Source of the DNA: Dehalococcoidia bacterium
GTDB lineage: Bacteria; Chloroflexota; Dehalococcoidia; Lucifugimonadales; UBA3495
DNA: 64,000 bases
Assembly (NCBI GenBank): GCA_965232835.1
Contig: OZ247426.1
Span: forward strand, 392,509 to 456,508
Direction of reading: 5' to 3'
Shown: positions 2,631 through 61,858 of the stretch, piece by piece
Numbering within the stretch: position 1 is the first letter of the stretch
Layout of the letters: every line of letters begins with the position of its first letter
Position numbers and translations under genes: made by a program
The notes under the pieces: generated by a model
Database searches by the model: none
Told to the model about the DNA's origin: nothing
Seen by the model: the letters and a program-made list of their open reading frames with translations, nothing else

Positions 2631-3839
2631 ATGAAACTGGATCACGGCATTCGCAATCTTTTGTTGGTTATGGCAATCCTGGCTGTGATTGCCGTTGCCG
2701 CCATTGCCTGCGGAGATGGCGAGGCGACAAGCGAAGCACCCGCCACGGCTCCACAGGCGACGGCCACGCCAGTACCGGCAGAAACACCCGAGGAGCCAAC
2801 CGCCGTCCCCACTTCGGCACCCGCAGCAACTGCTGAGCCGACGTCAGAGCCGGCTGCGACCGAGGCGCCTCAGCCCACGAGCACACCGGAGCCGACGGCC
2901 GCGCCCCAGCCATATCCCGCCGTGCCAGGCATCGTTGACCCGTCCAACACCGGCTGGCCTCGCGACGTCGAAACCCTCGAGGGCGTGGTCACGCTGGAAG
3001 CGCCGCCGGAGCGAATCCTGACGTATTCCCTGGGACACGACGAGATGCTGGTGGCCCTCGTGCCGCCCGAACGGGTGGCCGCTCTGGGGGCGTTCGCCAG
3101 CAATGCCTCCTATTCCAACGTGGCCAACATTGCCTCGGAATACCCCGTATTTGAGAAAGGTGCCGAGAATGTCCTGGCCGCCGAACCGGACCTGTTTATA
3201 GTGTCGGCATTCACGGACGCTGATATAGTCGACCTCGTGAAGGATGCCGGGGTTTCGGTCGTGAGGCCTGCCCTGGAAAGTTCCGCCGAAGGGAATGTCC
3301 CCAACATATTGCTGATGGGATACCTGCTGGGGGTAGAGGAACGGGCCTTGGAGCTGGCCGCGGAAATTGAGGACAGGCTGGCGACGATATCCGACAGAGT
3401 TCCGCCCGTTGGCGATCCTGGGAGACCGGCGGTGATTTCGATATCCCGTTGGTCTGACTCCATCAGCGTGGCAGGGGGCGGTACCACCGGCAACGGAATC
3501 ATCGAGTCCGCCGGTGGCTTGAACGCAGCGGCGCGCGACGGCATTGATGGGTTCCAGACGATCAGCACTGAGTCCGTCGCGGCCATGAACCCTGACTTCA
3601 TCATCATCCCCCAGGGCGGCGAGGGCGGCACCTCGCTGCGCGACGATCTGCTGAACGACCCGGTGCTGGCTGAAGTGCCTGCCATTGCAAACGGCGAGGT
3701 CCACATTATGGATGCCCCGAAGCACATCACCCTGTCTCACTGGAACGTGCGGGGCATAGAAGCAACGGCAGAAATTCTCTTCCCCGACCTGTTTGCCGAC
3801 GTGACTTTTACGGATTTCGAGCCATACCGCGGGGAGTAA
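2631..3839 (+). CDS. btuF: Cobalamin ABC transporter substrate-binding lipoprotein with a Pro/Thr/Glu-rich linker
   Basis: Lipobox AIAC, EPT-rich linker, then a Peripla_BP_2-type domain (PPERI, E-x-VLAAEPDL, VPAIANGEV). Confidence 0.82.
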   Translation: MKLDHGIRNLLLVMAILAVIAVAAIACGDGEATSEAPATAPQATATPVPAETPEEPTAVPTSAPAATAEPTSEPAATEAPQPTSTPEPTAAPQPYPAVPGIVDPSNTGWPRDVETLEGVVTLEAPPERILTYSLGHDEMLVALVPPERVAALGAFASNASYSNVANIASEYPVFEKGAENVLAAEPDLFIVSAFTDADIVDLVKDAGVSVVRPALESSAEGNVPNILLMGYLLGVEERALELAAEIEDRLATISDRVPPVGDPGRPAVISISRWSDSISVAGGGTTGNGIIESAGGLNAAARDGIDGFQTISTESVAAMNPDFIIIPQGGEGGTSLRDDLLNDPVLAEVPAIANGEVHIMDAPKHITLSHWNVRGIEATAEILFPDLFADVTFTDFEPYRGE

Positions 3840-3843
3840 ACCG

Positions 3844-4668
3844 TTGACCCTTTCGACAAGCCCAGGACAGGCTGTAAGCGCAAGCGCGGCGGTCCTGTCC
3901 GCCAGGGACGTATCGGTCCGGCTCGGGGGCAACCCCATCCTGAAATCGGTGTCATTCGAGGCCCGCGCTGGCGAAGTCGCGGGCCTCATCGGCCCCAACG
4001 GCGCCGGGAAGAGCACGCTCCTACGCGTGCTGGCGGGGTTGCTCCGCCCTGAGTCGGGGGACGTGCGCATCGAGGACGAGCCGCTGAAGGGACTCAACTC
4101 CAGCCAGAGGGCGCGACGCATTGCGTTTATGCCCCAGCACGACGCGACACACCCCTTTACGGCCATCGAGACTGTGCTCATGGGCCGGTACGCCCACCTG
4201 GGCCGTTTCGAGCTCGAAGGAAGGCAGGATAGGGAAATCGCGCTGGCCGCAATGGCCCGCACGGATACGGCGCAATTCGAGGACCGGCAGCTCGACCGGC
4301 TCTCGGGTGGCGAGCGCCAGCGGGTCATCTTGGCGCGGGCGCTGGCGCAACAGGCCGGCGTCATTATTCTGGATGAGCCATCGGCCAGCCTGGACCTTCG
4401 CCACCGTCTTTCGATCATGGAAACGCTGAGGGAGGAGGTGGCCGCCAGGCAGGTGGCCGTGGTTGTTGCACTTCACGATGTATCCCTGGCCAGTCGCTAC
4501 TGCGACCGGCTGACCCTCATGTCCGACGGGCGCATCGCTGGGGAGGGGAGTCCTGTCGAGGTCCTAACCACGGAGAATCTCAGAAGCACCTTTGGCGTTG
4601 AGACGGACGTACATATAGACCCCGCTTCAGGATCACCCCAGGTATGGCTGATTGGGCCATCGGCGTGA
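3844..4668 (+). CDS. btuD: Cobalamin ABC transporter ATPase
   Basis: GPNGAGKST, LSGGERQR, LDEP and LHD motifs. Confidence 0.88.
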   Translation: MTLSTSPGQAVSASAAVLSARDVSVRLGGNPILKSVSFEARAGEVAGLIGPNGAGKSTLLRVLAGLLRPESGDVRIEDEPLKGLNSSQRARRIAFMPQHDATHPFTAIETVLMGRYAHLGRFELEGRQDREIALAAMARTDTAQFEDRQLDRLSGGERQRVILARALAQQAGVIILDEPSASLDLRHRLSIMETLREEVAARQVAVVVALHDVSLASRYCDRLTLMSDGRIAGEGSPVEVLTTENLRSTFGVETDVHIDPASGSPQVWLIGPSA

Positions 4669-4720
4669 GTTCATCAGTCAATCTTTAAGGCCGCGAATAC
4701 TTCGAGGCATGGAGTACACC

Positions 4721-5815
4721 ATGGCGTCTGGTGTCAGGGTCACACTCGCGCAGGCTTTGGAACGCACAGGGAGTCTGGATACTGCCGCAATGGCCCGGGC
4801 CGAGGCTAGGCAGGGCAACCTGACCAAGCCGCCTGGCGCCCTTGGTCGCCTGGAGGATCTTTCCATCCGGCTTGCTGGCATCTTTGGCACCGAGAGGCCG
4901 ACCATCGGCGGGAAAGCAGTGATCATCGCCGCCGGAGACCACGGGGTGGTCGCCCAGGGAGTCACCGCCTACCCGCAGGAAGTCACCGCGCAAATGGTGC
5001 TCAACTTTCTTGGCGGTGGCGCCGCCATCAGCGCTATGTGCCGGCACCTGGGAATTCGACAGGTCATCGTTGACGCCGGAGTCGCCTCCGATCTTCCTGA
5101 CAGCCCGGAGCTTCGCACGCTCAAGATCGGCAGGGGCACGGCCGACATGAGCGAGGGTCCGGCGATGTCGCGAGATCAGGCGACGCAGTGCCTGGAGGCT
5201 GGAATCAATCTGGCGGTTGAGGTGATCGAATCGGGCGTTGACCTGCTGGCCACTGGCGACATGGGTATCGGTAACACCACGGCATCCAGCGCCATCACGG
5301 CTGCGGTTACCCAGTTGGATACCGAACAGACTACTGGAGAAGGCACGGGACGCAACCCCGAGGAGCTGCAGCTCAAGGCCGGTGTGGTACGCACCGCGCT
5401 GGAGGTCAACTCACCCGATCCGGCTGACGGTATCGACCTGTTATCCAAGGTCGGCGGATTCGAGATCGGTGTCCTGGCCGGCGTGATCGTCGGCGCAGCC
5501 ATGATGCGCCGCCCGGTGGTGGTGGACGGTTTCATTTCCAGCGCCGCCGCCCTGGTGGCCAGCGCCGTTTGTCCGACTTCCCGGGATTTCATGCTCGGGT
5601 CCCACGTCTCCGCAGAGCGAGGACACCGCGCCGCCCTCGCCGCCCTTGAGCTTGAGCCCCTGTTCGACCTGGGAATGCGCCTGGGCGAGGGAACGGGGGC
5701 GGCACTGGCAATGCCGATCATCGAGGCTGCCGCTGCCACGCTGTCCGAAATGGCCACTTTCGCCGAGGCGGGGGTGTCGGACAGGGAGTCGGAGGACGAG
5801 CCTGACCAGAGTTAG
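4721..5815 (+). CDS. cobT: Nicotinate-nucleotide--dimethylbenzimidazole phosphoribosyltransferase
   Basis: LTKPPGALGRLE, GDHGV, GDMGIGNTT and MRLGEGTGA motifs; ATG at 4721 follows GGAG. Confidence 0.95.
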   Translation: MASGVRVTLAQALERTGSLDTAAMARAEARQGNLTKPPGALGRLEDLSIRLAGIFGTERPTIGGKAVIIAAGDHGVVAQGVTAYPQEVTAQMVLNFLGGGAAISAMCRHLGIRQVIVDAGVASDLPDSPELRTLKIGRGTADMSEGPAMSRDQATQCLEAGINLAVEVIESGVDLLATGDMGIGNTTASSAITAAVTQLDTEQTTGEGTGRNPEELQLKAGVVRTALEVNSPDPADGIDLLSKVGGFEIGVLAGVIVGAAMMRRPVVVDGFISSAAALVASAVCPTSRDFMLGSHVSAERGHRAALAALELEPLFDLGMRLGEGTGAALAMPIIEAAAATLSEMATFAEAGVSDRESEDEPDQS

Positions 5816-52761: not shown

Positions 52762-53095
52762 TGCCGCGCTCCTGTGTCCTGTTCGGTGCCGGGGGGTGTT
52801 GCCGCCATTATAGCGCAGCAAGGGTCGGTGGGGAGGGCCTAGCTTCGGGATGTCGAACTCCGGTAGCATGAGTACCAGACTGAAGGGCTCCATTACCGAA
52901 GGGCGCCATTGTTGATTGGGAGCGGGGAATATTGGCGGAGCTATGGTCGCTGTCTCCTCGACTATTAGAGATTTCCCCACCTTCTGGATAGGACTGAAAA
53001 TACATTACGACCTGCAGATAGCGGAGGGACGGCTGGGGGAGCGAGGATGTTGCGGGTTATAATGTCATTTTGTTTGCCATTTGGAGCGAGAAGCC

Positions 53096-54223
53096 ATGAC
53101 CGACAGCGCTAGTGGTTTTGATCTACAGACGACTGAAGATGACCTCGAGGTTGAAAACGAGGTTCAATTCGACTTTGCAGAACACCGCCGCGTCGCCGTG
53201 GAGGAGTATCTTCGCATACGGACTCGATATGAGGCATTTGCCTACTCGGTGAGGGAAATCTTGTACCAAGCTCTGAAGACTGCCGGTATTCTTGTAAATT
53301 CTGTGGATGCTCGAGCAAAAGACCCTGAGAGTTTCGGCGCCAAAGCTGAGACACCTGCCGAGGATGATCCGCAAGCACCAAAATACCCACAGCCTTTGCA
53401 AGATATAACCGATCTAACTGGTGTGCGAGTCATTACGTTCTTCCCTGGCACTCTGCAGAATATCGGAGACTGCATACGACGAGAGTTCGAAGTACTTGAG
53501 CACACGGATCTCAGTCGGGCACTCCTTCAAGAGGAGCGATTCGGGTATCAGAGCGAACATTATCTCGTTAGGTTGGGCAGCGGAAGAACGGTACTACCAG
53601 AGTACGAACCTCATCAAGGTCTAGTCGCTGAAATCCAAGTACGCACCATACTTCAACATGCTTGGGCAGAAATCGAACATGATATCCAGTACAAATCGAG
53701 TATTACTATACCCAACTCAATTCGACGGCGGTTCATGTCTCTCGCTGGATTGCTCGAAATCGCAGATAGGGAATTCCAGGCTATTCAAGATGAGGATGAA
53801 ATACTAAAGCAACATACTGGAACTTCAGTTGAAGAGGGAGCGCTTGATCAGATAGAGATAACTGCTCATGCATTGCGATCGTATCTCCACAAGAAGTTCG
53901 AATCGGTTGGACGCGGACATGATTATAGCTCCGAATATTACGCTAGATTACTTCGTAGATTGGGGTTCACGACCATTGATCAGTTAGACACCTGCATTAA
54001 GGATTACGATGTCACTGAATTCACTAAAATAGTCCGTCGAGGGCGCGAAGGTCCCCCTATAAGATTGCAGGATCTTCTCCTCGCTGGAATGGGATCAGTC
54101 TTTGTTGAGAGTCGAGCCAAAGATCCAGTAAGAAAAGACAGCTTAAGGGCAAGGCTTTCCAGATACGAACGCTGGGGCATCCCAGTCGGGGAGTATGATC
54201 CGAATAAAGATGTCCGGAACTAA
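53096..54223 (+). CDS. Stand-alone RelA/SpoT (alarmone synthetase-like) domain protein, lower GC
   Basis: RAKDPESFGAK, DLTGVR, GYQSEH and EIQVRTILQHAWAEIEHDIQYK motifs; no HD hydrolase domain. Confidence 0.88.
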   Translation: MTDSASGFDLQTTEDDLEVENEVQFDFAEHRRVAVEEYLRIRTRYEAFAYSVREILYQALKTAGILVNSVDARAKDPESFGAKAETPAEDDPQAPKYPQPLQDITDLTGVRVITFFPGTLQNIGDCIRREFEVLEHTDLSRALLQEERFGYQSEHYLVRLGSGRTVLPEYEPHQGLVAEIQVRTILQHAWAEIEHDIQYKSSITIPNSIRRRFMSLAGLLEIADREFQAIQDEDEILKQHTGTSVEEGALDQIEITAHALRSYLHKKFESVGRGHDYSSEYYARLLRRLGFTTIDQLDTCIKDYDVTEFTKIVRRGREGPPIRLQDLLLAGMGSVFVESRAKDPVRKDSLRARLSRYERWGIPVGEYDPNKDVRN

Positions 54224-56762: not shown

Positions 56763-57638
56763 CTACCCCTCGCGGACGTACTTGTCGATGGCGTCGGGGA
56801 CGCCGGCGAGGTAGATGTCGCCGCGGGAGTCGATCCAGCTGCCGTGTCCGGAGCCGCGGCAGTCGAAGCGGGCGAGGACGCCGCCTTGGGGATCGAGGAT
56901 GCTGATTCGCGCGGAGCTGTCTCCGACCGTGCCTTCGCTGACAAGGAAGTTGCCCTCGGGGTCGCGGGATATGTCCATGGGCCGCTGAATGTCGTTCCAG
57001 AACTCGATGAACTCGCCGTTGAGGGTGAAGAGCTGAATGCGGTGGTTCTCGCGGTCGCAGACGATGATGCGGTCGCCGTCGATGATCAGGCTGTGGGGCA
57101 GGTGGAAGTGGTTGGCCTCGGACTTGCCGGGCTCACCCCAGGACTGGATCAGCTCGCCCTCGGCGGTGAAGCGGTGGACCCGGGAATTGCGGTAGCCGTC
57201 GGCAACATACAGCTCGCCGGAAGGCGACGGGACCAGCTCGGCCGGGTAGTTGAAGGGCCCGGCGGCACGTGGCACGAGGTCGCCCGCGACCTCGCAGCCA
57301 GTGTCGGAGTGGCGGCCATGGCGCCCCAGCATCTGCACGGGCTTGCCGTCGAGGGTGTAGACGAGGCAGGTGGAGGCGTCGCGGTCGGTCACGTAAACGA
57401 CGTCGTCCTCAATGTAAAAGCCGTGGGCGAATAGGAAGGAGCCGTTGCCCCAGGAGTCCTGGAGGTTGCCGTCGCGGTCGAAAATGAGGACGGGCGGCTC
57501 CTTGCGCTGGAAGGCGTAGACGAGGTCCTGGGAGTCTGTGGCGATGGCCGAGACCATGGCAAAGGTCTCGCCCTCGGGCAGCTTTGCCCAGTTTTCCTCG
57601 AGGGTGTAGGTGTAGTGGCCGGAGCCAAGGGTGGTCAT
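56763..57638 (-). CDS. NHL-repeat beta-propeller (peptidyl-alpha-hydroxyglycine lyase-like)
   Basis: AHG, FNYP, YVADGYRNSRVH, FHLPH and DRENHRIQ motifs. Confidence 0.85.
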   Translation of the reverse strand: MTTLGSGHYTYTLEENWAKLPEGETFAMVSAIATDSQDLVYAFQRKEPPVLIFDRDGNLQDSWGNGSFLFAHGFYIEDDVVYVTDRDASTCLVYTLDGKPVQMLGRHGRHSDTGCEVAGDLVPRAAGPFNYPAELVPSPSGELYVADGYRNSRVHRFTAEGELIQSWGEPGKSEANHFHLPHSLIIDGDRIIVCDRENHRIQLFTLNGEFIEFWNDIQRPMDISRDPEGNFLVSEGTVGDSSARISILDPQGGVLARFDCRGSGHGSWIDSRGDIYLAGVPDAIDKYVREG

Positions 57639-57807
57639 GGTGGCCTCCTGTAGGGGGTTGAAGTAGTGGGGCTATTGTACACGGTGGAGGGAGGATACTG
57701 GTTAGGGAGTTGTTGTTAGAGAATCGTAGACGGGCTCTTCGACTGCTACGGATTCAGACCGTGAGCGGAGCCTGCGGCGAGTCTAGAAGAGGCCGATGTT
57801 CGGAGCT

Positions 57808-58395
57808 CTACTCCGGAGTGCCCTGCGCCAGAAATGCCTTGATTGCGGCCATAATTTCCTCCGCCGTCTCTCCTCTATCTTGAAGGTTGAATGCCCAGTC
57901 GCGGCCGGGGTGCAAGGTATCCCATCGGGACCGCCGCTGATTCCGTCGCCCCGCACCCGGGACATGGTTGCCAAATCCGTCGACCACCACGTTCCATATC
58001 GGTTGGTACGTTGATATCAGTACCTGTTCGGTAAGGCCAATCCACACTGGGTCAAGAACGAGCCACCGACAGCGAAAGTCAAGCAACTCTAAGTTGGTCG
58101 TCGCTTCGATAGATTCGGCATGTTCCTGCAAACGTCGGCTGAGGACATTCGTTGTTGAATTCGTTGAAATGGTCCGGCCTTGTCGCCTTCCCGGAGGGTC
58201 TGCCTTGCCTACATATATGGGCGCATCCCCCTCGATATTGTCATAAGGAGAAGAGTTTCCTATGTAGTGCACCGTGTAGACGCCAGCCCCTGAGAAAGTC
58301 ACGCTTGGTGGCAACGGGTCGGCGGTGTAGTCCATCAAGGCCCGAGCCGCATTTCGCCCTAACTCCTCCACACTGAGAGGATTGTAAGCGCGCAT
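57808..58395 (-). CDS. Eco29kI-family GIY-YIG restriction endonuclease
   Basis: GAGVYTVHY, PIYVGKA, RLQEH, E-x2-LI-x4-PIWN, DGFGNH-x-PG and WDTLHPGR-x-WA motifs. Confidence 0.9.
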   Translation of the reverse strand: MRAYNPLSVEELGRNAARALMDYTADPLPPSVTFSGAGVYTVHYIGNSSPYDNIEGDAPIYVGKADPPGRRQGRTISTNSTTNVLSRRLQEHAESIEATTNLELLDFRCRWLVLDPVWIGLTEQVLISTYQPIWNVVVDGFGNHVPGAGRRNQRRSRWDTLHPGRDWAFNLQDRGETAEEIMAAIKAFLAQGTPE

Positions 58396-58398
58396 GAA

Positions 58399-59235
58399 TC
58401 AGCGCTCGCACTTCGTACTATTGCGGCAGACTATCCAGAAGCAGTGTCGTTTCCTGGCGTGATGGGCGGTTGACCACTTGGTTGAAACCATCGGACCAGT
58501 GCGTACTTTGACAATTAGGTCGCAGACTGTGAACCCTGCGTCTTCTGCCATTCTAATGAAGTCGCAATGGCTCCACTTTGAGCGGTGGCTGTTCACCATG
58601 TCCGTTATCTTAGCTAGCAACAAGCCATCTGGTTTCAGCACCCGCTTGGCCTGCTCCAGGAAAGGCGGATAGAGATAACTCAGGCTCCAGTCGTGCTCCT
58701 TGCCGCAGGCAACAGTTGCGCCAAAATCCTCGTCGAACCTTTTGCTGCTCTTGTCTCTCCCCTGCGGACCGACATGAGGAGGGTCGTAAACGACTGTACT
58801 GAAGGCACTATCGGGGACTCCATCCATTATTCGGTTGTCCCCCAATATCATCGGTTCGAACTTGGGGTTGATGTCCATTGAGACGACCTGCCGCGTAGAA
58901 CCCTTCCAAAACCGTCCCCTGTTGTACGTGGCATCCAATATCGGTTCTGGAGCAATAGACGGATAGAATCGCAACATGTTCTCAATTAAGTCTACGTCGT
59001 TGCCTTCCCACACACTACTAATGGGGGAGTATTCCCCCACGACAGCCAACTCTGTCTGGATCAACCCAGGTACCTCCACGGAACGGGTACCACCACAGAA
59101 AGTACCCGAATTTTCGGACGGATTCAGCATGAGAGCTTCCGTCCAACCGGCCTCTGGTGTGGCCAGTTCAGAATCGGAGACTCTACCATCCACCAATTGG
59201 TGTGCATTTTCAGCCACTCTGGACCTGGAGCGCAA
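58399..59235 (-). CDS. Small SAM-dependent DNA amino-methyltransferase-like protein (DPPH type); start may be ATG 59130
   Basis: Motif I-like ILDATYNRGRFW, motif IV-like VVYDPPH, RVLKPDG and C-terminal HARK. Confidence 0.75.
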   Translation of the reverse strand: MRSRSRVAENAHQLVDGRVSDSELATPEAGWTEALMLNPSENSGTFCGGTRSVEVPGLIQTELAVVGEYSPISSVWEGNDVDLIENMLRFYPSIAPEPILDATYNRGRFWKGSTRQVVSMDINPKFEPMILGDNRIMDGVPDSAFSTVVYDPPHVGPQGRDKSSKRFDEDFGATVACGKEHDWSLSYLYPPFLEQAKRVLKPDGLLLAKITDMVNSHRSKWSHCDFIRMAEDAGFTVCDLIVKVRTGPMVSTKWSTAHHARKRHCFWIVCRNSTKCER

Positions 59236-59358
59236 CTCACAACTGTCAGCAGATTATGACCAGTCTAGATGAGGTAGCTCCAATCCTCCTGGCCCTCTTC
59301 GACAAAAGGGTGAGTTTCTGATGCAGGTTAACGGACCGGAATCCGGTGCATTTACCCC

Positions 59359-60477
59359 TCAGTACCGCACGGTGTCCCAGGGCTGGGGGAACATGCCGAG
59401 CAGCGGCGACACGGTGCCTATGATGTCGCGGTTGATGTCGGCTATGGTGGGGCGGCCGCACATGCCCATGGTGGCGTCCATCTCGTCGCGCAGCATCTCC
59501 AGCACGGAGGTCAGGCCCTCTTCGCCGTTGACCGCCAGGCCCCAGAACAGCGGGCGGCCGATGAGCACGGCGCGGGCGCCGAGGGCGAGAGCCTTGACGA
59601 TGTCGGTGCCGCGGCGGATGCCGCCGTCCATGTAGACCTCAATGTCGCCGTTGGCCGCCTCGACGACCTCGGGCAGGACCTCGATGGTTGTAAATGTGGT
59701 GTCGAGGTACCGGGTGCCGTGGTTGGAAACGATGACCGCCTTGGCACCGCTGTCGGCGGCGTGGCGTCCGTCCTCGCCGACCATCACACCCTTGATGACC
59801 ACGGGCAGGCTCTGGGCGCCGGCCAGCCAGTCGACGTCGTCCCAGGTGGCGCCGGGGTCGCGGATGTCCATCACGCCGGCAGGGGCGTCGGCGGCGAAGC
59901 GCCAGGAATGCTCGGAGAGCTCAATCTGGTCGTAGTTGGGCGAGGAGGCGCCTACGTAGTCGTTGCGGATGTTGCGCTCGCGCTTGGGCTTGATTTTGGC
60001 GTCGACGGTGATGCAGAGGGCGGAGTAGCCGGCCTCGGCGGCGCGAGCGGCCATCTCGAGAGTTAGGCCGCGGTCCTTGAAGAGGTACTGCTGGAACCAC
60101 AGCGGGCCGGAGGCGGCGCCGGCCACATCCTCCATGGTGCGGGCGGCGTGGGAGCTGACAACCATGACGGTACCGGCCTTGCCGGCGGCGCGGGCGGTGG
60201 CCAGCTCGGCGTCGGGGTGGGCCGCCTCGTGATTGCCCGCCGGGTCGAGCATCACCGGGAAGCTGATGCGCTGTCCCAGCACGGTGGTGCTGAGGTCGCG
60301 CTGGCTGATGTCGGTCAGCATCTTCGGGCGGAGCTGAATGCTGTCGAGGACGGCGCGGGTGCGCCTGAGGGTTATCTCGTCGGTGGCCGCGCCGGCGATG
60401 AAGTCGTAGTGTCCCTTTTCCAGCTTCTCGCGGGCGATGGCTTCGTATTCAAATATGTTGACGGGCTCGTTGGCCAT
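59359..60477 (-). CDS. FMN-dependent alpha-hydroxy acid oxidase/dehydrogenase
   Basis: LWFQ-x-Y, PVVIKG, SNHG-x-R, DGGIRRGTD and GRP motifs. Confidence 0.92.
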   Translation of the reverse strand: MANEPVNIFEYEAIAREKLEKGHYDFIAGAATDEITLRRTRAVLDSIQLRPKMLTDISQRDLSTTVLGQRISFPVMLDPAGNHEAAHPDAELATARAAGKAGTVMVVSSHAARTMEDVAGAASGPLWFQQYLFKDRGLTLEMAARAAEAGYSALCITVDAKIKPKRERNIRNDYVGASSPNYDQIELSEHSWRFAADAPAGVMDIRDPGATWDDVDWLAGAQSLPVVIKGVMVGEDGRHAADSGAKAVIVSNHGTRYLDTTFTTIEVLPEVVEAANGDIEVYMDGGIRRGTDIVKALALGARAVLIGRPLFWGLAVNGEEGLTSVLEMLRDEMDATMGMCGRPTIADINRDIIGTVSPLLGMFPQPWDTVRY

Positions 60478-61120: not shown

Positions 61121-61858
61121 TTAAAACGCTGAAATAGCTATGACAATTGCCACGATCACCATAATTGCGAGGAAGCTTATATTCTTGAATCGCTTGTATC
61201 GTCTACCCCATCGATTTCGGTTGGCTCTACGTTTGTTGGCTGTAACTAATTGATCATTGGGACTGAGTGAAAGGGCATGGTCGAGATCCCGAAAGGCTTC
61301 ATTAAATTTGTTCAATCCCTGGTAGGCCATTCCCCTATTGTTCCAGGTGCCAGAAATGTTGGGGTCGATTTCGATTGCCTGATTGCAATCATCTATGGCC
61401 TGCTGATAGTTTCCAACGTTGAGATGCAACCAGCCTCGGTTGTGCCAGGCGGTGTGGTTCAGAGGGTCGAGACGGAGTGAGTTATCGATGTCGGAAAGGG
61501 CCTGATTGTTAAGGGAATTTACATCCCCACGGTCTACAACCCATCTCCATTCTCCGACCCAGTCTCTCGTCATTACGTAATCGGGGTCATAGAGCGCAAT
61601 GTTATGGAACGCCCATCCCCGGTGAAGCCAGAATATGGCACGGTTGGCGTCTAAATTGATAGCGCGATCATAGTCGTCTATGGCATCGCCGTAGTCTCCT
61701 TTGGCGAAATGTGCCTCACCACGACGATGGTATACGTCCGGATTGTTGCTGACGAAATTGATGGAGTTTGTAAAGTTGGCAATGGCAAGGTCCCAGTTGC
61801 CGCCCTCGAAGAATTCCATTCCAATCTCATAGGAATCTTGAGCTGCACGAGAGGTCAT
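61121..61858 (-). CDS. TPR protein with a C-terminal transmembrane anchor, lower GC
   Basis: About 5 TPRs (YHRRG, WHNRG, WNNRG); basic patch then a hydrophobic C-terminal tail. Confidence 0.8.
   Translation of the reverse strand: MTSRAAQDSYEIGMEFFEGGNWDLAIANFTNSINFVSNNPDVYHRRGEAHFAKGDYGDAIDDYDRAINLDANRAIFWLHRGWAFHNIALYDPDYVMTRDWVGEWRWVVDRGDVNSLNNQALSDIDNSLRLDPLNHTAWHNRGWLHLNVGNYQQAIDDCNQAIEIDPNISGTWNNRGMAYQGLNKFNEAFRDLDHALSLSPNDQLVTANKRRANRNRWGRRYKRFKNISFLAIMVIVAIVIAISAF

Follow-up and report, generated by a model that had tools for sequence, protein, structure and literature searches.

We analysed a 64,000-nucleotide stretch of the genome of a Dehalococcoidia bacterium (hereafter the window), in which two adjacent genes encode a nuclease of the Eco29kI family and a compact predicted DNA amino-methyltransferase (MTase). 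The pair had been singled out by a reading of the letters alone (the sequence-only reading), and our follow-up indicates that it is very probably a type II restriction-modification (R-M) module that is functional or was so until recently. The locus contains the following features.

57808..58395, minus strand: restriction endonuclease gene, Eco29kI family (GIY-YIG); 195 amino acids (aa) from ATG, intact open reading frame (ORF)
58396..58398, minus strand: spacer of 3 nt separating the MTase stop codon (58401-58399) from the nuclease ATG (58395-58393)
58399..59130, minus strand: predicted compact DNA amino-MTase gene; 243 aa from the ATG at 59130
59131..59235, minus strand: candidate N-terminal MTase extension to a TTG, not conserved; the full ORF, 58399..59235, has 278 aa
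57689..59358, no strand: islet of low guanine-cytosine (GC) content, 1.67 kb, defined by flank comparison with same-genus genomes and by the GC profile
56763-57638: NHL-repeat protein gene flanking the islet, by family assignment of the flanks
59359-60477: flavin mononucleotide (FMN)-dependent dehydrogenase gene flanking the islet, assigned in the same way

The sequence-only reading had described two minus-strand genes 3 nt apart in a lower-GC islet, and the ORF list and the junction sequence, ...cgc TGA ttc ATG cgc..., agree with its coordinates and motifs. The islet is also real: in 400-nt windows GC is 0.52-0.565 over 57800-59199 and 0.60-0.71 in the flanks. The arrangement of stop codon, 3 nt and ATG recurred at 21 of the 37 same-strand loci of the survey described below (a tblastn end-to-start distance of 7), and hence the adjacency is not a chance juxtaposition; translational coupling of the two genes is probable. 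Conservation of the MTase starts near residue 66-69 of the 278-aa ORF, with similarity to homologues and at the DNA level beginning at about 59025-59040, which makes the ATG at 59130 a likelier start than the TTG at 59235. The segment 59131..59235 is then probably an untranslated leader.

Profile searches bore out the claim that the nuclease is an Eco29kI-type GIY-YIG enzyme with its catalytic positions kept. It matched PF09517 (RE_Eco29kI) at 1.1e-58 with 198.1 bits (cut-off 30.8) over profile positions 2-163 of 164, the PADLOC model REase_II at 2.1e-51, and, by sequence, the solved Eco29kI structure (PDB 3mx1) at 2.3e-40. In tblastn comparisons its identity is 45.5% to the Eco29kI enzyme of pECO29, 40.6% to a homologue from Neisseria gonorrhoeae and, in a partial match, 47% to the enzyme of Deinococcus radiodurans pCP1 (R.DraR1). 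Mutagenesis (PMC1952068) supports Y49, Y76, R104, H108, E142 and N154 as active-site residues of Eco29kI. Residues Y40, Y61, R88, H92, E123 and N135 of the window enzyme align to these six, which are invariant across an 11-sequence alignment of the family, and a C-terminal block, DGFGNH-PG-GR-W-HPGR, is common to the window nuclease and Eco29kI. The gene is intact, and its product is predicted to be active. A quick maximum-likelihood tree of 66 nucleases, many forks of which lack support, placed the window enzyme, Eco29kI and R.DraR1 in one clade of 43 rows (Shimodaira-Hasegawa-like approximate likelihood ratio test 100). Eco29kI-type nucleases, 41-46% identical, were also present in eight records of a phage collection.

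The partner had been read as a DPPH amino-MTase and not a C5-cytosine enzyme, and this holds. The protein had no match to PF00145 (C5) at E<=1, and its LDATYNRG/DPPH core does not vary in 41 homologues. In the 243-aa form, motif I (LDATYNRGRFW, residues 64-75) precedes DPPH (116-119), and HARKRH lies near the C terminus. Invariant in the alignment of 41 homologues are a D-x-T-x-N-x-G-R-x-W core, the acidic D86, D-P-P-H (41/41) and H-A-R-K-R-H, and the conserved core spans about 210 aa. An AlphaFold2 model (predicted local distance difference test score (pLDDT) 73.8, predicted template-modelling score (pTM) 0.74) shows an unpermuted class-I strand order, confirming a class-I methyltransferase fold at the level of the model. 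Residues ~120-155 and 209-229 of the 243-aa form are strongly conserved, yet the model has low confidence there. Foldseek (pdb) and VIA searches with this model returned generic class-I S-adenosylmethionine (SAM) methyltransferases (VIA Z 12-14); no specific DNA-MTase relative stood out in these searches of the PDB, and structure does not settle the sub-class. A PDB sequence search with the MTase gave nothing significant.

The MTase belongs to a large family with few names. We found 916 homologue clusters at 90% identity, and the best 120 of these were 69-94% identical to the window protein, spread over many phyla and almost all without Pfam domains. A 50% library of 1.84 billion representatives yielded 1343 clusters at E<=1e-3, 603 at <=1e-10 and 126 at <=1e-30. 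Of 10 family members looked up, five had an NCBI name, in each case 'hypothetical protein', and one of these five is also named 'DNA methylase N-4/N-6 domain-containing protein' in UniRef. Aligning 22 mid-range matches delineated a wide clade whose proteins have 200-250 aa and share 32-47% identity with the window MTase; all of them have DPPH, and the sequences resembling M.NruI and M.Sbo13I have DPPY. Fusions to ParB_N or to a second MTase occur in part of the wider clade, and some of its neighbouring ESM-Atlas clusters are labelled viral. To that extent, the description of the partner as a phage-like orphan MTase fits the wider DPPH clade. It does not fit the window subfamily, which occurred in 7 of ~2.9 million viral contigs and stands next to a nuclease in 61 of 80 loci; with seven viral contigs, a phage origin of the subfamily is unsupported. 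Fused nuclease-MTase proteins or other long forms of the subfamily were absent among proteins of 427-2000 aa, which is weak evidence.

Relatives of the MTase were found on plasmids. A tblastn search hit four small plasmid genes annotated 'DNA methyltransferase' (24-28% identity), among them one on Shigella boydii pSB13 (25% identity, E 1e-7), which encodes a 253-aa MTase convergent with a 224-aa gene and adjoining a helix-turn-helix gene. The names of the plasmid and the species suggest that pSB13 is the plasmid of Sbo13I. An hhalign comparison of the MTase alignment with the pSB13 MTase gave 96% probability and E 3.6e-9 over 185 columns at 26% identity, with motif I, DPP-, RVLK-x-x-G and HARK-x-H as aligned blocks. 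M.NruI and M.Sbo13I form a separate gamma-class subgroup of amino-MTases with DPPY and the extra motifs IVa and Xa (PMC2890505). The window MTase has the motif order of this subgroup, X-I-II-III-IV...VIII in ~250 aa. It also resembles these enzymes in its size of ~250 aa, in having motif I before IV, in lacking a large target-recognition domain (TRD), in having a type II nuclease partner and in the blocks D-x-T-x-x-x-G-x-F-W, DPP-, RVL-x-x-G and HARK-x-H. Further conserved blocks lie after DPPH and at the N terminus. Nevertheless, it is only 22-24% identical to the NruI/Sbo13I-like sequences in the alignment, has DPPH for DPPY and N-R-G for G-x-G in motif I, is paired with a nuclease of another family and would probably act on CCGCGG instead of TCGCGA. 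Sequence comparison thus places it as a remote relative of the compact gamma-type M.NruI/M.Sbo13I family.

DPPY-type relatives occur in the host's own class as well. Five loci (L106-L110) encode NruI/Sbo13I-like MTases of ~250 aa, each followed by a conserved gene of ~150-170 aa that is probably the cognate nuclease gene and that had no Pfam family (tested for L106 only). The DPPY-clade relatives pass PF01555 at 30.9-37.2 bits.

We examined the pairing of the two genes from both sides. First, 80 genome loci were chosen by their MTase homologues (63-89% identical) and searched locally with nuclease profiles. An Eco29kI-type nuclease lay directly downstream of the MTase in 61 of the 80:

29 loci: intact nuclease on the same strand
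8 loci: broken or partial nuclease on the same strand
22 loci: convergent, shorter (~150 aa) family member
1 locus: convergent, long nuclease
1 locus: convergent, partial nuclease
19 loci: no nuclease, 2 of them without room on the contig

Similarity to all 80 loci at the DNA level was confined to window positions 57823-59040, that is, to the two genes, and no synteny with them extended further. The MTases keep 63-89% protein identity at 68-77% DNA identity, and their nuclease partners fall to 28%; if the MTase acts as proposed below, this unusual conservation would reflect catalysis and sequence reading in a single small domain. Second, 23 metagenome loci were chosen by their nucleases. In 5/5 loci with a nuclease >=66% identical to that of the window, the compact MTase lay directly upstream; 13 loci with a nuclease 40-49% identical had an adjacent C5 MTase resembling M.Eco29kI, 2 loci (~43% identical) had an adjacent alpha-class N4 MTase resembling that of pCP1, and 3 were not judged because of contig ends. 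Third, within an even set of 301 genomes of the host's class, PF09517 was present in 11. The partner was the compact MTase in 2 of these (the source genome, G000, and G218), a C5 enzyme in 1 and a pCP1-like MTase in 8. Both genomes with a nuclease of the window's clade carry the compact MTase, which brings the close nuclease relatives with this partner to 7 of 7 (5 metagenome loci and 2 genomes), and another genome (G060) has the compact MTase alone. No nuclease of the window's clade was seen without the compact MTase among the metagenome loci and the 301 genomes. The loci chosen by MTase show a decay pattern of missing or broken nucleases next to a retained MTase, and survival of the MTase without the nuclease, the reverse not being seen, is the signature of an R-M pair. 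The pair is therefore conserved across genomes in both directions of sampling.

The shorter nucleases at the 22 convergent loci (within L028-L078, for example L039:4644-5111 and L055:4638-5147) face the same conserved MTase and are ~30% identical to the window nuclease. They still pass PF09517, lack the C-terminal tail, have SGFGSK in place of the DGFGNH block and form a separate clade on a long branch of the nuclease tree.

Taken together, the surveys show that Eco29kI-type nucleases pair with three classes of MTase: C5, alpha-class N4 (as in DraI) and compact. These classes are interleaved in the nuclease tree, with 8 label changes where 3 is the minimum possible, which suggests that MTases of equal specificity have been swapped. 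The DraI-type pairing is less rare than was concluded from REBASE (PMC10855626). Indeed, MTases of 430-490 aa that share 41-47% identity with the MTase of D. radiodurans pCP1 (presumably M.DraR1) stand directly beside Eco29kI-type nucleases at L093-L095, L098-L102, L155 and L156, that is, in 8 genomes of the class and on 2 metagenome contigs. From these small samples, non-C5 partners appear to be common in uncultured lineages.

The anatomy of a type II R-M system is present at the locus, with separate, adjacent nuclease and MTase genes that are inherited together. We infer from sequence relationships that DNA is the substrate of the MTase, and in the same way the recognition sequence, the modified base and host protection. 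The upstream gene would encode a minimal SAM-dependent DNA amino-MTase with a core of ~210 aa, a gamma-like motif order and no separate TRD, which would methylate the host copies of the recognition site; the downstream nuclease would cut unmethylated sites in incoming DNA. The order of MTase before nuclease with a 3-nt spacer would let the MTase be made first. The likely site is CCGC/GG, and the mark would be N4-methylcytosine (m4C) because CCGCGG contains no adenine. The characterised enzymes Eco29kI (PMC1952068), Cfr42I (PMC4081073) and R.DraR1 (PMC10855626) all cut CCGC/GG, and M.DraR1 makes m4C in CCGCGG (PMC10855626). The host genome contains 1836 CCGCGG sites, so an active nuclease with this specificity would need host protection. 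The gonococcal homologue of the window nuclease is also credited with CCGCGG. On balance, recognition of CCGCGG with m4C protection is the probable combination.

Several observations weigh against this picture. The sole Pfam match of the MTase, PF01555 (N6_N4_Mtase), reaches 19.9 bits and stays under the cut-off of 26.7; the PADLOC MTase models reach E ~0.01 (best MTase_II, 0.012), and NCBIfam scores lie far under the cut-off. Motif I reads N-R-G, without the G-x-G described for the NruI/Sbo13I family. The structural model is of middling quality (pLDDT 73.8), M.TaqI appeared only at Foldseek rank 50, and the fold matches are generic. A scan for sigma-70-type promoters, which may not fit the host phylum, returned 0 sites. 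The genome is rich in DNA MTases: elsewhere in it, 11 pass the PF01555 cut-off, some of them in ORFs of 650-945 aa, and together with one C5 MTase they might provide a second protector. The recognition site and the modified base are deduced from homology. CCGCGG is mildly depleted in the host genome (observed/expected ratio 0.64, rank 6 of 64 palindromes), a value that is not distinctive and leaves palindrome avoidance uninformative about specificity. Adenine enzymes more typically have D-P-P than S-P-P-Y (PMC10855626 for S-P-P-Y), and the relative M.NruI is probably an N6-methyladenine (m6A) enzyme (PMC2890505).

The weak profile scores and generic fold matches raise the question of whether the MTase acts on RNA, protein or a small molecule, or whether the true protective MTase is encoded elsewhere, in which case the adjacency would not be that of an R-M pair. 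The fold matches are indeed to small-molecule and RNA methyltransferases, no DNA-MTase model passes its cut-off on the protein, and 12 other DNA MTases are available in the genome. We regard this as very improbable. The MTase co-occurs strictly with the nuclease clade in both directions and is homologous to the methylase of an R-M plasmid (pSB13), DPP[HY], the motif of exocyclic-amino DNA MTases, does not vary, and no nuclease of the window's clade was found without the compact MTase. None of the 11 PF01555 MTases is linked to the nuclease. The only C5 MTase of the source genome belongs to a separate operon 3.3 Mb from the locus. Its identity to M.Eco29kI is 25%, with gaps in the variable region, against 49% throughout for two true Eco29kI partners; we rejected this MTase as the cognate protector, in agreement with the sequence-only reading, which depended on there being no cognate C5 MTase elsewhere. 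A search of the genome with the pCP1 MTase found only a 21.6%-identical gene ~1.05 Mb from the locus.

The C5 operon (L001, G000:C1:3755472-3759344) encodes an IS1595-like transposase, the C5 MTase (PF00145), a 244-aa protein and Vsr, and is thus a second R-M-like operon of the genome that is laid out on the same principle. The 244-aa gene, which overlaps in the operon, has no Pfam or PADLOC family and is a candidate new nuclease gene.

A second alternative keeps the type II R-M system and changes its specificity: the nuclease clade could have changed its recognition sequence, or the MTase could modify adenine, for instance in a TCGCGA-like site with an outer A/T. The nearest characterised MTase relatives act on TCGCGA, M.NruI probably producing m6A and M.Sbo13I probably m4C (PMC2890505). 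Motif IV of the window MTase begins with D and not S, the nuclease shares only 40-47% identity with the characterised cutters of CCGCGG, and the DGFGNH region is altered in the short convergent nucleases. On the other hand, the characterised enzymes of the Eco29kI family cut CCGC/GG (PMC4081073, PMC10855626 and PMC1952068), the window nuclease nests among them in the tree and keeps the block DGFGNH-PG-GR-W-HPGR of Eco29kI, and a member of the same MTase family, M.Sbo13I, is probably an m4C enzyme. A different site or N6-adenine methylation is thus unlikely, although less so than a non-DNA substrate, and CCGCGG with m4C remains the specificity that we favour.

The islet 57689-59358 is horizontally acquired. 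In 11 genomes of the same genus (G301-G311; loci L121-L130), the sequences flanking it are 75-94% identical, and the islet itself is present in 0/11. Matches to the flanks end at query positions 2184-2195 and resume at 3851-3888. In three of these genomes (G302, G305 and G309) the flanking genes are 21-87 bp apart and the site is empty, 7/11 have other inserts of 1.1-4.7 kb, and 1/11 is rearranged. The inserts are low in GC. Their products include FRG-domain/pentapeptide proteins that match the PADLOC candidate PDC-S15 (E to 4e-74), a type IIG restriction-methylase of 1085 aa (9e-70), a protein with a weak resemblance to REase_II and others without assignment; for the cargo of L124 and a transposase-like ORF of L123, we relied on visual inspection alone. 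Because the inserts of the sister genomes carry defence genes, the intergenic site between the NHL-repeat and FMN-dehydrogenase genes is a genus-level hot spot for such genes. A horizontally transferred type II R-M module, with CCGC/GG as the most likely site and an m4C mark, is our likely overall description of the locus.

The window islet has no transposase, and a search for terminal inverted repeats found none that were convincing. Elsewhere the module is mobile: a transposase of the IS1595 family stands beside it in 14 of the 80 MTase-chosen loci. A Terriglobia genome has three 99.9%-identical units of 2.45 kb comprising transposase, MTase and nuclease with 30-nt inverted repeats (L069, L070 and L072, at about 3094-5539). 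In a Thalassobaculaceae genome the unit is present five times with 35-nt repeats; there the transposase is frameshifted and the nucleases are decayed, but the MTase is kept (L057, L060, L063, L067 and L082, at about 2893-5462). Post-segregational killing by type II R-M systems, Eco29kI included, has reportedly been studied, and the transposase-linked and multi-copy units would suit a mainly selfish addiction or stabilisation module that serves its carrier element by such killing instead of defending the host. For the window pair this is improbable, its copy being without transposase or inverted repeats and located at a chromosomal hot spot that is occupied by defence genes in related genomes of the genus; moreover, addiction is compatible with defence, since both use the same biochemistry. 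A broader proposal can be offered only tentatively, as one more likely to need revision than to stand: the DPPH subfamily may be a TRD-less N4-cytosine MTase of ~210 residues for CCGCGG that, with the GIY-YIG nuclease, forms a self-transposing R-M unit as IS1595 cargo in at least six phyla, mostly uncultured.

The pair compares with known systems in different ways. With Eco29kI (pECO29) and Cfr42I it shares the nuclease family PF09517 (45.5% identity to Eco29kI, six active-site residues), two adjacent co-oriented genes and probably the site CCGC/GG. Eco29kI, however, is partnered by a C5 MTase of ~380 aa (PF00145 type) in the order nuclease then MTase, where the window has an amino-MTase of ~240 aa in the order MTase then nuclease. 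The partner of Hpy188I is an adenine MTase. Hpy188I resembles the window pair as a GIY-YIG restriction enzyme (PMC4081073) with a non-C5 partner but belongs to another GIY-YIG family and recognises TCNGA. DraI of D. radiodurans combines an Eco29kI-type nuclease with an m4C amino-MTase on CCGCGG, and hence the Eco29kI-type family does work with non-C5 protection (PMC10855626). M.DraR1 is an alpha-class enzyme of about 430 aa with motif I close to its N terminus and with SPPY, in contrast to the compact DPPH enzyme of the window, and the DraI genes lie ~10 ORFs apart in D. radiodurans, compared with the 3-nt spacer here. The 434-aa pCP1 MTase, taken as M.DraR1, had no match in the 80 compact-MTase loci, and the two enzymes are unrelated at the level searched.

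Type II R-M systems, the nuclease family, the pairing with an m4C MTase (DraI, 2024) and compact gamma MTases (2010) are known. The pair is therefore closer to known systems than the sequence-only reading suggested, given the published m4C system DraI (PMC10855626) and the published compact gamma R-M MTases (PMC2890505). Its description as non-canonical survives in the sense of a non-C5 R-M unit, and not in the sense of a different defence or toxin-antitoxin logic, which we rejected because both proteins fall in R-M enzyme families and show R-M linkage and the R-M decay pattern. What we did not find described is the pairing with a compact MTase and the DPPH subfamily itself. A literature search, with subscription papers, supplements and REBASE lying outside it, brought up no publication in which an Eco29kI-type nuclease is combined with an MTase of the NruI/Sbo13I type. 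The 2024 REBASE survey lists 310 CCGCGG systems, all m5C (5-methylcytosine), three putative m4C systems and 129 unassigned nucleases (PMC10855626), and the unassigned nucleases are consistent with compact partners going unrecognised. With the PADLOC model REase_II matched at 2.1e-51 and the best MTase_II at E 0.012, an automated R-M finder would probably report a lone nuclease at this locus.

The finding adds a third, structurally minimal class of MTase to the partners of Eco29kI-type enzymes, and a large, highly conserved MTase family gains a name and a testable function. If the CCGCGG/m4C activity is true, the enzyme would be among the smallest sequence-specific DNA MTases and a compact model for the reading of six base pairs by an enzyme that lacks a dedicated recognition domain. 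A further consequence would be that R-M finders and NCBI annotation miss the DPPH MTase, that automated R-M and defence annotation recovers too few systems in uncultured lineages, that part of the 'solitary' CCGCGG nucleases (129 unassigned, PMC10855626) are actually paired, and that sampling accounts for the published 'rarity' of CCGCGG systems with non-C5 MTases. The IS1595-borne copies illustrate clearly how insertion sequences can carry R-M genes as cargo. The result is useful for annotation and introduces no new defence principle.

Two other low-GC genes lie near the locus in the window. An islet at 53081-54223 on the plus strand (GC 0.44-0.54) encodes a stand-alone RelA_SpoT protein of 380 aa (PF04607, 1.2e-16) with a weak match to PADLOC PDC-S33 (1.5e-8), which may be a toxin or defence gene of the small alarmone-synthetase type. 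On the minus strand, 61121-61858 (GC 0.47-0.52) encodes a TPR-repeat protein of 245 aa that ends in a hydrophobic tail.

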